Origin: Minisyncoccota bacterium
GTDB lineage: Bacteria; Patescibacteriota; Minisyncoccia; JAHIHE01; JAGLIN01
Direction of reading: 5' to 3'
DNA: 64,000 nucleotides
Assembly: GCA_041661265.1 (NCBI GenBank)
Contig: JBAZUT010000002.1
Span: forward strand, 140,316-204,315
In this document: piece after piece, positions 17,702-34,700 of the stretch
Position numbering within the stretch: position 1 is the stretch's first letter
Layout: each line of letters begins with the position of its first letter
Notes under the pieces: model-generated
What the model was told of the DNA's origin: nothing
The model's database searches: none
Seen by the model: only the letters and a program-made list of their open reading frames with translations
Made by a program: the position numbers and the translations under genes

Positions 17702-18097
17702 TTAGTGATCTTTGTCTCTCTCTTCACTCAGCTTCAGAAGATATTCCAGTTTCTTTATTTGTTTTTCCTTTCCCTCTATTAGACTTCTGGAAAAAGTGGA
17801 AAGGATATAAAGCTCCAAGCCCACCCCGGTGAATATATAGAATATGGTGAATATTTTAGACGAAGCGGACGTTGGATGCAGATCTCCATAGCCCACTGTC
17901 GCTAAAGTGGTAACACTGAAATAGAAAGAGTCGAGATAGCTCCATTTTTCCACATTCGAATAGAACAACATTCCGGTAATAAGAAGCAGAAGAAGCAGAA
18001 GAAGCAGAACATAAGACGCCATGAACCCGGGGGGAGGTTTGACTCCCGTAAGATGTTCGTGAGTGTTATGGAAAAAATCGACTGCTATCTTTTTCAT
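17702..18097 (-). CDS. two-TM potassium channel (KcsA/Kcv-like pore-only subunit)
   Basis: K+ selectivity filter TVGYGD between two hydrophobic helices. There is a poly-Leu run in TM1. Confidence 0.7.
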   Translation of the reverse strand: MKKIAVDFFHNTHEHLTGVKPPPGFMASYVLLLLLLLLLITGMLFYSNVEKWSYLDSFYFSVTTLATVGYGDLHPTSASSKIFTIFYIFTGVGLELYILSTFSRSLIEGKEKQIKKLEYLLKLSEERDKDH

Positions 18098-18181
18098 TTT
18101 GACTTATGTTAATTTCACGACAAGATATAAAAATAACGCGACACTCCTTTTTTTATGTTTTAAGTTTCATGCTTTATGGAT

Positions 18182-18288
18182 TGAGCCACCTGTCGGAGTC
18201 GAGCCTCCTCCCGAGGCGGACAGAGACGACCAAGGTTGCAGTTTATCCGCCCACTGGCGGAATACCGTTGCTTTTGCCAATCTATCTT
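18182..18288 (-). pseudogene. decayed tRNA-Thr-like copy (no acceptor 5' strand, broken T-stem)
   Basis: Shares a 21-nt 3' end (18182..18202 equals 18289..18309) and a D-loop/anticodon-stem segment (ATTGGCAAAAGCAACGGTAT) with the adjacent tRNA-Thr. It cannot form a cloverleaf. Contains the hairpin TCCGCC-AGTG-GGCGGA. Confidence 0.45.
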
Positions 18289-21753: not shown

Positions 21754-21881
21754 ATGTTTGCGGAGGCGGAGGAAGAACCTTTGTTTACCGATATACTATA
21801 CCCGCATATAATAATTTCTAATTTTCAATTTCTAATTTCTAATCAAAATTTAAAATTCAATGATCGGATATTCGTTGGAAA

Positions 21882-29182: not shown

Positions 29183-30188
29183 CTTTATAAATTATCTCTT
29201 TATTGTTCTTTAATTCATTCAAATTCCTCGCGCCGACAAGCATCATCGCTGTCTTGAGTTCCAGTATAAAATTATCCAGATATTCGATGACTTTTTCCGG
29301 ACTGATGTTTGCGGCTTTGAGAAGCGGCCCTGCCAAACCGACCAGATCCGCGCCAAGCGCAAACGCCTTGCATGCCGTGATCCCGTCATATATGCCTCCG
29401 CTTGCTATTATAGGCATTTTTACGGCTTTCCTGCATTGAACAAGGCTCTCTGCGGTTGGGATCCCCCATTCCGAGAACCTGTTTGCGAGCCCGCTGTCGG
29501 CTTGTCTGAAACTCTCAACCCTCGTCCAGCTTGTTCCTCCCGCTCCCGCAACATCGATCGCCCGCACTCCGGTTCTTTCCAATATTTTTGCTGTCTTTCC
29601 GGATATCCCGAAACCGACCTCTTTAGTGATTACAGGCAAATCCATGAATTTGACGAAATTAGTCAGATTTTGCGTAGAATCAGCGAAATTACGCTCTCCT
29701 TCCGCCTGAACCAGCTCTTGCGCAAGATTCAAATGCACAAAAACCCCATCGGCATTTATGCTCTTTATGGCTGACCTAATTTTAGCAAAATTCTCATAAT
29801 TTTTCAAGTAATCCAGCCCTATGTTTCCCATGTATAGAATGCCCGGCGCAACGCTTCTGATCTCATATGTACAAGCCTGTTTTTTGTCTTTTATCATCGC
29901 TTTTTGCGATCCGCAGCTCATTGCAATATTCAACCTGTCAGCGGCAATGGCCAAGTTCGTATTTATCTTTCTTGCCCTCTCGCAACCTCCCGTAATCGAA
30001 GAAATGATGATCGGATGATCGATCTTCTTTCCCAAAAAATCGGACGAGATATCTATGTCTTCAAAATTAAAATCAGCTATTGCATTGTGCAAAAGCTCAT
30101 ATTTCTCGAATCCGCTTTTTTTACAAAACCCCGATCCCTCTTTCAAACAGATCTCAATATGATCTTCTTTTCTCTTAGTTATGCTCAT
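29175..30188 (-). CDS. fni: type 2 isopentenyl-diphosphate delta-isomerase (FMN-dependent)
   Basis: N-terminal KRKEDHI, a TIM-barrel Gly-rich FMN site (ASGGIYDG) and the ...GAGGTSW... motif. 337 aa. Confidence 0.8.
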   Translation of the reverse strand: MSITKRKEDHIEICLKEGSGFCKKSGFEKYELLHNAIADFNFEDIDISSDFLGKKIDHPIIISSITGGCERARKINTNLAIAADRLNIAMSCGSQKAMIKDKKQACTYEIRSVAPGILYMGNIGLDYLKNYENFAKIRSAIKSINADGVFVHLNLAQELVQAEGERNFADSTQNLTNFVKFMDLPVITKEVGFGISGKTAKILERTGVRAIDVAGAGGTSWTRVESFRQADSGLANRFSEWGIPTAESLVQCRKAVKMPIIASGGIYDGITACKAFALGADLVGLAGPLLKAANISPEKVIEYLDNFILELKTAMMLVGARNLNELKNNKEIIYKVV

Positions 30189-30191
30189 GCG

Positions 30192-30563
30192 TTAATTTCT
30201 GCTCATGAAATAAAACTCCAAAAGGCTTATGCCGAATATAAATAACGCCGCATTATATGTATTCAAAAGTTCGATGCTTTTCAAAAAAAGCATCCCAACG
30301 AACATAAAAGACAACAAGACTCCTTCCCTGAATGAGATTCCAACTTGAGAAAATTCCGCTTTATTCAACACGATCTTTCTTCTTGCCCAAAAACCCAGGA
30401 ACGAGAACAGACCAGAAAGAGCAAAGAATAGGCTCAGATAAAAAACAACTAGTCCGGGAAAACCGGTGTTATTCGGATCCACATTCAGAACGATCAGAGC
30501 CCATGCAACAAAGCAAATGATCGTGCTCAGAACGTTCAACGTTAAATATGTCCGCAGAGTCAT
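30192..30563 (-). CDS. hypothetical integral membrane protein (4 TM)
   Basis: Hydrophobic ORF of 123 aa. Confidence 0.4.
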   Translation of the reverse strand: MTLRTYLTLNVLSTIICFVAWALIVLNVDPNNTGFPGLVVFYLSLFFALSGLFSFLGFWARRKIVLNKAEFSQVGISFREGVLLSFMFVGMLFLKSIELLNTYNAALFIFGISLLEFYFMSRN

Positions 30564-30980: not shown

Positions 30981-31185
30981 CAAAGGCATTAATTTCAAAT
31001 TTTAAATTTACAATTTTAATTGAATTTTTAATGACAAAATTTTTAATGTAAATTAGAAATTAATTAATTTAAAATTTAATGAAAATTGAAAATTAGAAAT
31101 TGAAAATTCAAGGTCTTGCTATAGTATATTGCTTTTATTAATATTTTGTGTTATAAGTTATTTGTTATAAGTTATACGTTTATAC

Positions 31186-31243
31186 GGGGGCGTAGCTCAG
31201 TTGGTTAGATCCGCCGGTTGGCGGACTGTCCCGCAGCAGGCCC
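31186..31243 (+). pseudogene. decayed tRNA-Asp copy: first 24 nt identical, D/anticodon junction replaced by a hairpin, T-arm and acceptor 3' strand missing
   Basis: GGGGGCGTAGCTCAGTTGGTTAGA is identical to the 5' end of the intact tRNA-Asp. It is followed by TCCGCCGGTTGGCGGA and then CTGTCCCGCAGCAGGCCC, a close relative of the tRNA's anticodon-loop and variable-loop segment CTGTCACGCAGTAGGTCA. Confidence 0.5.
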
Positions 31244-31274
31244 TTTGAGAAAGAGATATTTGAAATTTATATAC

Positions 31275-31348
31275 GGGGGCGTAGCTCAGTTGGTTAGAGC
31301 GACTGCCTGTCACGCAGTAGGTCACCGGTTCGAGCCCGGCCGTCCCCG
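31275..31348 (+). tRNA. tRNA-Asp (anticodon GUC)
   Basis: Hand-folded: acceptor GGGGGCG/CGUCCCC, discriminator G73, anticodon loop CUGUCAC, T-loop UUCGAGC. Confidence 0.85.
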
Positions 31349-31370
31349 CAAAAAATAGATATTTTGAATA

Positions 31371-31393
31371 AACATACCTTAGGGGTGTGTTTT
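31371..31393 (+). terminator. rho-independent terminator after tRNA-Asp
   Basis: AACAUACC-UUAGG-GGUGUGUU hairpin (one G.U pair) followed by UUUU. Confidence 0.5.
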
Positions 31394-31403
31394 ATGATGC
31401 TCG

Positions 31404-31640
31404 AACTCGAACGGGAAGGGGTCGGGAAACGGTAGTTTCCCGCTTGGGGTGACCGATCCGCCAACCGGCGGAGAGGACCAGAGGGCGGAAGCCCTATGAA
31501 TCGCAGTCCCGAGGATTCGGGACGAGCAGTGAGATGCCCGGCCGTCCCCGCCTTCGCCTCGCTGAAGCTCGGCTATGGCGCGGTAATACCCGCCAATCGC
31601 CGAGCAAAAGCGGGACTTTTTAGAACATTAGTTTCTACAA
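31404..31640 (+). ncRNA. candidate structured non-coding RNA (unclassified)
   Basis: A GC-rich island of stacked perfect hairpins (CGGGAAAC-GGUA-GUUUCCCG, UCCGCC-AACC-GGCGGA, GGGC-GGAA-GCCC, GUCCCGA-GGAU-UCGGGAC) lying between two intrinsic terminators. The overlapping 93-aa ORF is implausible as a coding sequence. The strand is assumed from the flanking terminators. Confidence 0.35.
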
Positions 31641-31643
31641 TAA

Positions 31644-31669
31644 AACATACCATCATGGTATGTTTTTTG
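31644..31669 (+). terminator. rho-independent terminator, a near-duplicate of the one at 31371
   Basis: AACAUACC-AUCAU-GGUAUGUU hairpin followed by UUUUUUG. The stem sequence is the same as in the terminator at 31371..31393. Confidence 0.55.
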
Positions 31670-31705
31670 TTTAAAGCTCAAAAAGAGAGTTCACACACAT
31701 CAAAA

Positions 31706-31732
31706 AACATCCCCGCACGGTGCGGGGATGTT
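31706..31732 (-). terminator. rho-independent terminator of the 2650-aa giant gene
   Basis: A 12-bp perfect hairpin (AACAUCCCCGCAC-GG-UGCGGGGAUGUU) begins 9 nt past the TAA stop at 31742..31744. On the minus strand it is followed by UUUUUUG. Confidence 0.7.
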
Positions 31733-31741
31733 CTGAACGTC

Positions 31742-34700
31742 TTATGGAGTTGTCTCGTCCCACTTGAGGGTACTTAGAACGGGTACTGTATTGGAATCAG
31801 TATATATAGGGGAGTTGTTCACAGCTCTTACTCTATAGAATGCAAATCCCGGAAGCGGATCATTATCCATGCATATCCTGTTATCGGAATCAACCGGGAA
31901 ATCCGCGACATTCAGGCATATGACTTCTGCCGAACTGAAATCCGAATTATCATCCCTGTAGACCGTATATACCGGCGGTCCGCCTTTTACAGAATACTCT
32001 GCCGCAGACCAATCCAACCTTACCCTATTCGGAAGATTTTCATAATCAAGCATAAAGTCTCCCGGAGGAGCGATCGGAACATAAACGGGAGATATGATAT
32101 TTGAACTCGTCGTGCCTGCCGCATTCACTGCCCTGATCTGATATTCATAGGTCGTATCCTCCTGGGCTGTCAGATCATTGAATGTAACAAAACCTGTTGG
32201 AGGAGGATCCTCATAATCGGTTCCCGAGACCATCGAATCCAAAGGCGTTGAATAGGCTGCCGTCGCTTTATTGATGAACAGGCCGAACAGGTCATCCATC
32301 TTTTCGCCCATGCCCACATAAGCAAACTCCGAATCACCCTGGAGCCTTCTGAATATCTCATATGAAGTTTCATTCTGCGTATCGCTCCATTTGATCTCAA
32401 CATTACCGCCCGCACTCAAGGTGTAGCTTGCGGAAACAAGAGAAAGGAATGGCGGATAAAAAGGCGGAATATTCAGACAATCGCAAGATGTTGTCTGCAA
32501 GCTGGGATCCGATTCCACCGAATTATCAACGCCCGAGCCCACAGCTTCCACTTTATATACATAATTCTCCACACTGTTTATATTGCCGTCAATATAGGTT
32601 CTGGCCAGATACGGCATATTCTCCCTGATCTTGCTGAAATTTGTTTCGCCTGCCGACACATTCTTTCTCAAAATATTATACGAGAAGGTCTTGCTTTCGT
32701 CATAGGGCGCCCAATTGATCTGCATACGCGATGAAGAACCCGCGCATATCGGCAACACGGTGTTATCGGTATTGCCCGGCAAAGCTCCGCCGCATACATA
32801 TCCGGAATCCCTGCTGATCACGGGTTTTGCGGGAACATCAAAGCACTCCATGGCAATGGCTGTCTTTTCTTCGGAAAATGCGACGCTGCTGCTTCCATGC
32901 GCCTCAATATAATAATCATAGCTGGCGCTGCTTTCAACATTCAGGTCGATATATGAAGTCAAAGTTGTCCCCGGACAATTAATACATGTATATGCCGCAA
33001 ACGGCTCGCTGGTGCGCTTTTTATATATGGTCCAATAGGATGTGTTCGGATCCGGCAGCCACGAAAGCGCTATCTGCGTTCCCGAAACATCACAACCCGG
33101 AGTCAGGATCAGATTCGCCTGAACCGGCGAACAATCCGGCGCAATAATGGAAACTTCATTCGACATAGCGCTCTCATTTCCGATCCCCATCGCCTTCACC
33201 GCATATTTATAGTTTTTATTCGATTCCAGAGGAAGAGAACTTAGTATATTCGGAGAATCAGACTGTCTTTCGGGACCATTGATCAATGTTCCGTCGGAAC
33301 CATTCCCGGAATTGTCATATGCCGCTACTCCCGCTTTTTCATCAAAATGCCAGACACCGGCCAGGCCAAGTTCGTTTTTATAGATAGCATTATATTGCTC
33401 CGCAATTTCTATTCCACTTAAACTTCTTCCGTAGATGCGGACCTCGTCGATCGATCCGTCAAAAAGCTCATGCCACTGCGGTGACCCGCCCTGGCGCGCG
33501 CCGATCGTTACCGGCGCATCGCTCAATATCGTATTGCTTAATGAATTTTCATCGATTGTAACACCAAGAGAGATCCCGTCTTCATATATCCTTACGCCAC
33601 TTGCCAGACTGGAACCGTCATAAGTGATCACGTAATGGTGCCAACCGCCATCATTCAGCATGCTTGGCGATGTAGTGCTCACCGTGATAGCGTTTGAAGA
33701 CCAAGTATTGACCATCATGAAAGATATGGTTCCAGCCCTCACCTGCGAGGTTGGAAAATAGTAATTCGTTATCAGATGCCATCCTCTATACGGACTGTAA
33801 TCCGACGCCTTTGTGATCACTTCCTGAATTCCGGTACTTGATGCATCCGGCTTAAGCCAAGCTGTGATCGAAAATGCTCGATCTCGCTCAAAATCAAAGT
33901 TTGATTCATTCGCGATTGCCGCATAATCATCCGATCCATCAAACTGCAGGCTCCTCGACCCGCCATCGGTTATTGGCGACCTGACGGAAAAATAGACGGA
34001 TTGCAGAGAATCTGAGACATTATTTCGATATAAATTATAAGAATAAGCATTAGCACTTGCCGTCCAGGACAGATCCGCATATGGCACGTTCAGATCGCAA
34101 TAAGTACTGCCGAGAGCCAGAGTAGAAACGTCAGGAACTCCGCAGAACAATGTCGTCACCGACCTCGAGCTCGAAAAGGATGTGAGGGCGGTGGGCCCTA
34201 TTGCTTTTATCCAATAGTAATATGTCCAAAGATCCTGAAGTCCCGCCGAACTGTCCGTCCATGCCCTGGAATTGAATTCAGCAAGATCGGAAGGAATGGT
34301 TTTGTCCAAAGCCTTAACTAGCAATGCCGAACCCATGTTATCGATCGTATTGCGATATATCTCATATTTTTGGGTGCCGGAAGGAAAATCATCCGACCAC
34401 GAGATCATATTATAGGGATCATTTGTACTGCAATTGGAGTAAATTGGGTCAATAACCGGCGTGAAAGGAACGCAATAATTGCCGATGCCGATCAAGGCAA
34501 CATTGGAACCTGCTCCCTCACCTGCGTCATTTTCCGCTTTGACGACATAGGAATAGGCAGTGTTGACCGCTATACCCATATCATCATAGGAATTTGTCGT
34601 TCTGCTCGTCAGATAGGATCCATCTCGATAAATGTTATAAGAAGTGGCGTTTGGAACATTGTCCCACCCGAGAGCCGCATAGGGGTTCGAGCCAGAACAT

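Follow-up and report, generated by a model that had tools for sequence, protein, structure and literature searches.

A GC-rich hairpin segment downstream of tRNA-Asp in a Paceibacterota genome as the possible scar of a small gene-less insertion

The window analysed here is the whole 64,000-nucleotide (nt) stretch of contig JBAZUT010000002.1, a bacterial chromosome segment from a member of the Paceibacterota, within the Candidate Phyla Radiation (CPR). This placement follows from the 123-aa protein encoded at 30192–30563, which is identical to an NCBI entry of a 'Candidatus Paceibacterota bacterium' metagenome-assembled genome. Its genes include pheS, pheT, a NIF3 gene, an FMN-dependent dehydrogenase gene, gyrB, type IV pilus-like genes and genes for giant Laminin_G_3 proteins. 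The segment under study (positions 31404–31640) is located at the 3′ end of a tRNA cluster (tRNA-Met, tRNA-Met, tRNA-Asp), opposite the end of a convergent gene encoding a 2650-aa protein. A reading of the sequence alone had described this segment as a hairpin-dense candidate non-coding RNA (ncRNA) enclosed by two matching intrinsic terminators, or alternatively as the folded end of a decayed element. Its GC content, described there as far above that of the surrounding intergenic DNA, is 60–67% across 31404–31640 and 0.64–0.67 in 100-nt windows compared to 0.09–0.30 in the upstream intergenic DNA, and the segment is the sole non-coding GC island of such size in the window.

The hairpins listed in the sequence-only reading are all present where it placed them, and every hairpin loop in the segment is 4 nt long. 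When perfect hairpins were counted (stem of at least 6 bp, loop of 3 to 6 nt), five were found for 0.26 expected, a number reached in none of 2000 dinucleotide shuffles. The segment contains three perfect tetraloop hairpins with stems of 6 bp or more. Folded as a whole, the GC-rich stretch has a z-score of −5.0 on the + strand and −7.25 on the minus strand, most of the signal coming from the terminator and the long hairpin at the 3′ end, and the core (31406–31556) has a z-score of −1.77. The fold of the core is thus only modestly better than that of shuffled sequences. The 93-aa open reading frame (ORF) across it, considered implausible as a coding sequence from the start, has no Pfam match, and gene calling on the same strain's ENA contig passed it over. 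The six-frame pieces of 31350–31745 likewise gave no Pfam match, even at E ≤ 10, and a decayed protein gene was rejected for this reason.

The intact tRNA-Asp (GTC) gene occupies positions 31275–31349 of the + strand (ARAGORN; 63.9 bits with the Rfam tRNA model). Its last 16 nt (31334–31349) recur exactly at 31536–31551 (GCCCGGCCGTCCCCGC, 16/16 identical), giving two matches in the window for 0.00 expected. Since 31536–31551 copies the 3′ end of tRNA-Asp, the locus can be described as tRNA-Asp followed by a 202-nt insert between direct repeats, the first copy resembling the core of an attL attachment (att) site and the second that of an attR site. Between the repeats lie the tRNA trailer, a weak terminator and a core block, hereafter X. 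The trailer and weak first terminator cover 31350–31403 (+), with a hairpin at 31370–31392 (AAACATACC/GGTGTGTTT, one G·U pair). X (31404–31535, +) starts with GGGGTCG and carries at 31412–31423 a 5′ motif, CGGGAAGGGGTC (in degenerate form, TCGAAY-GGRAA-GRGGYCGRGAAA). Four hairpins come next: an 8-bp stem, CGGGAAAC/GTTTCCCG, at 31423–31442 (hairpin 1); the palindrome TCCGCC-AACC-GGCGGA at 31457–31472 (hairpin 2); GGGC-GGAA-GCCC at 31483–31494 (hairpin 3); and a 7-bp stem, GTCCCGA/TCGGGAC, at 31506–31523 (hairpin 4).

Downstream of the second repeat copy, a long GC-rich stem-loop particular to the window occupies 31552–31621 (+). It has an outer stem, CTCGCT/AGCGGG, containing a U·G pair that by direct reading is valid on the + strand only, and an inner stem, GCTCGGC/GCCGAGC, whose arms lie at 31567–31573 and 31599–31605. 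A TTTTT run follows, and 31557–31616 together with this run is terminator-like both by direct reading and by fold. The tRNA-Asp transcription unit ends at a strong intrinsic terminator (31642–31672, +; AAAACATACCAT-C-ATGGTATGTTTT with a T-tail). Of the two terminators reported to match, the second (31642–31666) passes the terminator scan with 11 pairs, a loop of 3 and a T-rich tail, whereas the first is a weaker and diverged version, 78% identical over 27 nt, that fails the scan. The terminator of the convergent 2650-aa gene (31706–31732, minus strand) is a perfect 13-nt inverted repeat, AACATCCCCGCAC/GTGCGGGGATGTT, followed by T6; it lies outside the insert and marks its boundary, and the gene itself ends at 31742.

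A second insert is found on the 5′ side of the same tRNA. This 89-nt unit (31181–31269, +) consists of a partial tRNA-Asp copy, a palindrome (TCCGCC-GGTT-GGCGGA, 31210–31225), the anticodon-loop-like sequence CTGTCCCGCAGCAGG and an AT-rich spacer. Its first 29 nt (31181–31209) exactly copy TATAC, the 5-nt leader, and tRNA-Asp positions 1–24, and form a direct repeat with 31270–31298 (100% identical). The likely promoter of the tRNA-Asp unit was read directly at 31129–31157 (+), as TTGCTT, a 17-nt spacer and an extended −10 element, TGT-TATAAG; the consensus scan omitted it because the −10 ends in G. We infer its promoter function from sequence, and the block is about 90% conserved in the closest relative (L014, described below), where the adjoining intergenic DNA cannot be aligned.

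A sister insert of 107 nt follows tRNA-Thr (18181–18287, minus strand). It begins with a 17-nt spacer, continues with the tRNA-Thr-like blocks GCAACGGTAT, TAAAC and GGTCGTC, and ends with a 22-nt copy of the tRNA-Thr 3′ end (18181–18202). The blocks keep their original order in the tRNA and are split by a palindrome (TCCGCC-AGTG-GGCGGA, 18246–18261) and a second GC-rich stretch. A related contig whose neighbouring protein is 89% identical (L257, 83–170) provides the exact empty site: there, TCCATAAAGCA comes directly after tRNA-Thr, and in the window it comes after the second repeat copy. The insert is also absent from L258 and L259. A structured RNA at this site was rejected, as the tRNA-Thr insert has no significant fold (z = −0.37).

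The inserts are tied together by their palindromes. Only three perfect GC-rich palindromes of the 6-N4-6 type exist in the 64 kb; all three are TCCGCC-N4-GGCGGA, with one in each insert, and the two at tRNA-Asp (31210–31225 and 31457–31472) are exact reverse complements. A dispersed GC-cluster or REP-like repeat was rejected because these three occurrences in 64 kb are the only ones and all fall within partial tRNA copies. The 16-nt copy of the tRNA-Asp 3′ end, the 29-nt copy of its 5′ end and the reverse-complement relationship of the palindromes had all been overlooked in the sequence-only reading.

Relatives were examined at the tRNA-Asp locus in a syntenic contig of a metagenome-assembled genome (L001), in metagenome contigs L008–L011 and in L256, which stops short of tRNA-Asp. 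A truncated tRNA-Asp copy separates the promoter-like block from the real tRNA-Asp in many contigs of Paceibacterota. The 5′ unit was located in L008 (10017–10185) and L011 (1–170), each with two tandem copies, in L009 (581–667), L010 (1824–1903) and L256 (1–49), and in degenerate form in L001 (743–823). The truncated copy comprises tRNA positions 1–24, the palindrome and what remains of the anticodon loop and 3′ stem, and has no T-arm; its first 22–24 nt are unchanged in most contigs. Of the seven lineages with a 5′ unit, six have kept the palindrome arms unchanged (one arm is one base shorter in L009, and one arm has decayed in L001), and the central 4 nt vary between GGTT, GGCT, GACT and AGCT. 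Constancy of the arms, with variation only at the centre, suggests a sequence-specific site. The truncated copy could possibly act as a regulatory leader or as a recombination site.

On the 3′ side the picture is different. The closest relative covering the region, L014, whose neighbouring protein is 82% identical, has in order tRNA-Asp, a weak terminator, an X homologue of about 130 nt, a 17-nt copy of the tRNA 3′ end (TCCGGCCGTCCCCGCGAA) and, directly after this copy and without the 31552–31621 stem-loop, a terminator. The trailer and first terminator of the window are homologous to those of L014, and L014, which lacks the 5′ unit, is an empty site for the 89-nt insert. In L013 (81% identical), the start of X is 88% identical over 33 nt and lies 57 nt after elongator tRNA-Met (L013 1–90, minus strand). 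No tRNA-Asp is found between the two, the spacer resembles the tRNA-Asp trailer of the window, and the contig ends 32 nt into X. Either tRNA-Asp may have been lost from the locus or the module may sit at a different tRNA; the arrangement, cut off by the contig end, is suggestive of mobility. Nothing like the segment follows tRNA-Asp in the five more distant relatives that reach past this gene (L001, L008–L011): an AT-rich terminator comes next, then differing genes, and the flanks are too diverged to be aligned. X is restricted to a single lineage. BLAST of the segment against all gathered loci gave matches only in L006, L007 and L013; no second copy of X was found in the window, and no further direct repeat was found downstream within the relatives' contigs examined.

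Both lineages with X have C at position 60 of tRNA-Asp, in the T-loop, where L001, L008, L010 and L011 have T. In L014, the base before the downstream repeat is T, as in the older allele. This pattern fits the displacement of an older tRNA 3′ end by incoming DNA.

MEGAHIT contigs of the same strain (ENA ERZ27249449; L003, L006 and L007) break at 31242–31382 and at 29350–29490 with 141-nt overlaps, which places branches of the assembly graph at tRNA-Asp and inside the FMN-dehydrogenase gene. These branches could correspond to strain variants with different tRNA-Asp flanks, or merely to single-nucleotide polymorphisms. The sole difference between the window and L003 over 12 kb is a 9-nt indel (CTGCTTCTT, 17981–17989), a tandem-repeat unit in a K+ channel gene.

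Integrative elements prefer particular positions within tRNA genes. Recombinase or nuclease genes were found at the tRNA ends of relatives. In L010 (127–1776), tRNA-Asp faces a convergent gene for a large serine recombinase of 549 aa (Resolvase, Recombinase and Zn_ribbon_recom domains), whose ORF overlaps the 3′ end of the tRNA. The contig ends at the start of this gene, which probably marks the edge of an integrated element. In L015 (259–620, minus strand), initiator tRNA-Met is immediately preceded by an inserted gene for an 80-aa GIY-YIG nuclease (PF01541, E = 1e-18), which is flanked by direct repeats made up of the tRNA-Met leader and the initial 12 nt of the tRNA. Upstream of the GIY-YIG ORF is a perfect 9-bp palindrome (GATATGGCC/GGCCATATC). 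Finally, L011 carries a PemK/MazF toxin gene downstream of tRNA-Asp. As a separate observation, L015 (1–95, minus strand) contains a truncated copy of elongator tRNA-Met (positions 1–31) with a back-pairing cap (GCGTGGG...CCCCGC), just upstream of the full tRNA-Met; it adds to the 5′ partial tRNA copies of the clade.

The interpretation that we favour, with a probability of about one half, is that the segment forms the interior of a small gene-less insertion scar left by a tRNA-targeting element at the 3′ end of tRNA-Asp. An element bearing a copy of the tRNA 3′ end would have recombined into the tRNA-Asp gene. The outcome would be the intact tRNA at 31275–31349, about 186 nt of element DNA and the displaced second 16-nt copy at 31536–31551, with the older downstream flank and its terminator behind it. 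The remnant would have approximately the size of an attachment site with its arms, and the palindromes would be former protein-binding sites of the element. Alternatively, they may be hairpins that were kept since the tRNA-Asp operon now has the insert as its transcribed 3′ trailer; in that place they would aid 3′-end stability and termination ahead of the convergent 2650-aa gene. The insert may now serve as a structured trailer and terminator region of the operon.

An element that carried a tRNA end, trailer and terminator of its own would leave two paralogous terminators, and the first and second are related in this way. The same architecture at tRNA-Thr, with its empty site in L257, and the mirror-image 89-nt unit 5′ of tRNA-Asp both count in favour of a scar, as do the palindromes that the three inserts share and the gene-bearing counterparts in L010, L015 and L011. 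The folded end of a decayed element, named only as an alternative in the sequence-only reading, is thus the better fit to the 3′-end repeats, to the absence of the segment from five relatives and to the tRNA-Thr empty site. Moreover, partial tRNAs are the usual footprint of integrations into tRNA genes, including degraded ones (bioRxiv 10.1101/2020.12.28.424599). The locus resembles the tRNA att scars of genomic islands, prophages and Prochlorococcus tycheposons (bioRxiv 10.1101/2020.12.28.424599) in that an intact tRNA forms one boundary and a repeat of its 3′ end the other. Presence also varies among relatives, the tRNA-Thr insert has an exact empty site, the genes flanking the tRNA 3′ end differ and, in one relative, a recombinase gene abuts tRNA-Asp. 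Unlike those scars, the inserts of the window are 89–202 bp long and gene-less, lie both 5′ and 3′ of tRNAs and have a 16-bp palindrome in common; in addition, the nearest relative keeps the hairpin positions, and an autonomous partner element was not found.

Several observations weigh against the insertion scar. Inserts of 107–202 bp are too small to move as double-stranded circles, which would require either near-complete internal deletion on three occasions or another mechanism. No integrase, transposase or other element gene was found in the insert or among the ORFs scanned across the 64-kb window, and none of the phage, plasmid and IMG/VR collections yielded a copy of X. BLAST against phages returned tRNA matches only and BLAST against plasmids nothing; pattern scans of IMG/VR with the X 5′ motif and the tRNA–palindrome junctions returned nothing relevant, and two broader sequence patterns produced only chance matches in GC-rich phages. 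On the basis of these searches, a phage or plasmid origin was rejected. The insert 3′ of tRNA-Asp has no empty-site counterpart, as L014, the closest relative, carries it too and the flanks of the distant relatives cannot be aligned. The hairpin positions are the same in L014 although the sequence differs, and a structure-guided alignment leaves every pair intact. The 5′ motif and the repeat copy are conserved amid saturated intergenic DNA, which is unexpected for a dead scar. Finally, the presence of X after tRNA-Met without tRNA-Asp in L013 is left unexplained by the scar model.

These last points bring in the best surviving alternative, which we consider possible though unlikely: that X encodes an undescribed structured small RNA of a narrow Paceibacterota lineage. 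Such an RNA would be made by read-through from tRNA-Asp or from a weak promoter of its own and would end at the strong terminator. Its four tetraloop hairpins would be enclosed by a closing helix in which the 5′ motif (CGGGAAGGGGUC) pairs with the tRNA-3′-end copy (GGCCGUCCCCG). As a stable RNA derived from the trailer, it might mimic the acceptor end of tRNA-Asp or pair with it. The window and L014 were aligned under structural guidance, with hairpins 2–4 fitted to the structure, and RNAalifold returned the closing helix and four hairpins in the same order in both sequences. Of 27 comparable pairs, 16 are identical, four have one-sided and seven double-sided changes, and none is broken. In hairpin 1, which is anchored by flanking homology, one G-C pair is replaced by A-U in a compensatory manner and another by G-U. 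The 5′ strand of the closing helix shows G·U to A-U and U·G to C-G changes that keep the pairing with the unchanged repeat, so that the anchored parts together contain one compensatory and three one-sided changes. The G·U pairs in L014 and in the long 3′ hairpin are valid on the + strand only. Next to saturated intergenic DNA, the X 5′ motif retains 75–88% identity and the block that ends in the repeat copy 100%, and a sigma-70-like site at 31369–31398 would place a transcription start near 31404. The L014 hairpins are thus suggestive of some constraint on RNA structure of the + strand.

Nevertheless, the comparison includes only two full sequences and one 32-nt fragment, and since the alignment of hairpins 2–4 was fitted to the structure, the pair changes are suggestive and do not constitute proof. 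The core folds only marginally better than shuffled sequences in both lineages (z = −1.77 in the window and −1.76 in L014), and the closing helix is not the minimum-energy pairing in the window. L014 has no promoter-like site upstream of X, and X matches no Rfam family and is missing from most relatives. The perfect palindromes of the window suit DNA-level sites or a recent origin equally well as RNA helices. For the ncRNA first proposed for the segment, such as a reduced RNase P RNA or a riboregulator, the hairpin positions kept in L014 speak in favour, and the missing Rfam and ARAGORN matches and the marginal core fold speak against. A model for its function, if transcribed, is 3′ETS-leuZ of Escherichia coli, a small RNA processed from the trailer of a tRNA operon. 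The position is alike, a structured stretch on the tRNA strand between the last tRNA of the operon and the terminator, but the two have no homology, and the likeness concerns only how the segment could work.

A broader and rather speculative proposal, which we hold to be unlikely, is that the three inserts of the window and the widespread 5′ units of other Paceibacterota belong to one family of miniature modules, free of genes and directed at tRNA gene ends. Each would create a tRNA duplication of 16–29 nt and carry an invariant palindrome, TCCGCC-N4-GGCGGA, as the site of a trans-acting recombinase or nuclease. In view of their size, movement might proceed through single-stranded or hairpin DNA, and some copies, X among them, may have been domesticated as structured leader or trailer RNAs of tRNA operons. 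Non-autonomous derivatives of integrative elements include cis-mobilizable elements flanked by att sites and miniature elements similar to miniature inverted-repeat transposable elements (MITEs). With these, the inserts share gene-less DNA between site-specific repeats and a short inverted-repeat motif in several copies. They differ in numbering three per 64 kb, each at a different tRNA end, and in being below the size of a double-stranded circular intermediate. The free-standing GIY-YIG homing-endonuclease insertion of L015, with its leader/5′-end direct repeats and palindrome, is a gene-bearing counterpart of the 5′ insert, although the inserts of the window have neither an ORF nor a detectable ORF remnant. 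GC-rich palindromic repeats are also known from AT-rich genomes, as repetitive extragenic palindromes and bacterial interspersed mosaic elements (REP/BIME) and as the GC clusters of yeast mitochondria. The likeness lies in short, perfect GC-rich palindromes within AT-rich non-coding DNA; unlike these repeats, the motif of the window is not dispersed and is found only inside partial tRNA copies.

It is improbable that X is a heavily remodelled tandem duplicate of tRNA-Asp, that is, a pseudo-tRNA whose body was replaced by GC-rich hairpins and whose 3′ end was kept, with the partial copy at tRNA-Thr as a younger stage of the same process. The tRNA-Thr insert does keep GCAACGGTAT, TAAAC, GGTCGTC and the 22-nt 3′ end in order with hairpins between them. 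X itself starts with GGGGTCG, one base different from the 5′ acceptor strand of the tRNA (GGGGGCG), and ends with the 3′ acceptor strand, and the trailer and terminator are duplicated as well. However, the part of X upstream of the repeat is not significantly similar to tRNA-Asp positions 1–59 (z = −1.2 in the window and −0.35 in L014). As its local alignment to these positions is no better than that of shuffled sequences, X was rejected as a recognisable tRNA-Asp copy. ARAGORN and the Rfam tRNA model detect nothing in 31350–31700, and X has no 7-nt hairpin loop and no T-arm. The 17-nt spacer of the tRNA-Thr insert has no counterpart in the tRNA or in the flank of the empty site, and a simple tandem duplication would give no such spacer.

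The last alternative, a highly divergent member of a known RNA class (reduced RNase P RNA, signal recognition particle (SRP) RNA, transfer-messenger RNA (tmRNA), 6S RNA, a ribozyme or half of a split tRNA), is effectively excluded: the segment is GC-rich, structured and adjacent to tRNA genes and has one GGAA tetraloop, but no Rfam 15 family reaches its gathering score in it or comes near at E ≤ 10 (the sole sub-threshold match is RT-11 on the minus strand, 24.4 bits for a cut-off of 143.5), only six tRNAs pass the gathering threshold over the whole window, ARAGORN finds neither tRNA nor tmRNA in the segment, and the universal RNase P and SRP motifs are absent by direct reading. The suggestion of a reduced RNase P RNA is thereby abandoned. 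The 16-nt complementarity between 31210–31225, after the 5′ tRNA fragment, and 31457–31472, before the 3′ fragment, gives a superficial likeness to archaeal split-tRNA genes. It stops at the self-complementary 16-mer, and each part is found without the other in relatives, X alone in L014 and the 5′ fragment alone in L001 and L008–L011. They are therefore not halves of one gene, and a split tRNA or processing stem was rejected.

Two further features of the window were recorded. The spacers upstream of tRNA-Asp (31083–31129) and tRNA-Gly (21790–21850, minus strand) have in common an AT-rich repeat, GAAATTGAAAATTAGAAATT, followed by TATAGTATAT; a similar AT-rich run lies upstream of the tRNA-Asp unit in L010. 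This repeat may be an upstream promoter element shared by tRNA genes. On the other side of the insert, 31742–62430 holds a run of minus-strand genes. Their products include very large proteins of the secreted type (2650, 1164 and 2848 aa), which carry Laminin_G_3, fn3 and DUF2341 domains. The run also contains a T2SSF gene and genes for several small proteins, and an N-terminal methylation (pilin-like) motif is present in at least one of these. The region probably encodes a type IV pilus or adhesins of the episymbiont.

Integration scars at tRNA genes are already known; what is new is their miniature, palindrome-bearing and two-sided form in CPR genomes. If the segment is only a scar, it belongs to ordinary biology and serves chiefly as an annotation warning: where GC-rich hairpin islands are found next to CPR tRNA genes, partial tRNA repeats should be looked for before an ncRNA is called. 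If instead the inserts belong to an active family with a 16-bp recognition palindrome, they would represent a new type of element targeting tRNA ends and would show in what way mobile DNA persists in the very small genomes of Paceibacterota. In that case, the truncated tRNA-Asp copy between the promoter and the real tRNA would also be a candidate regulatory leader.

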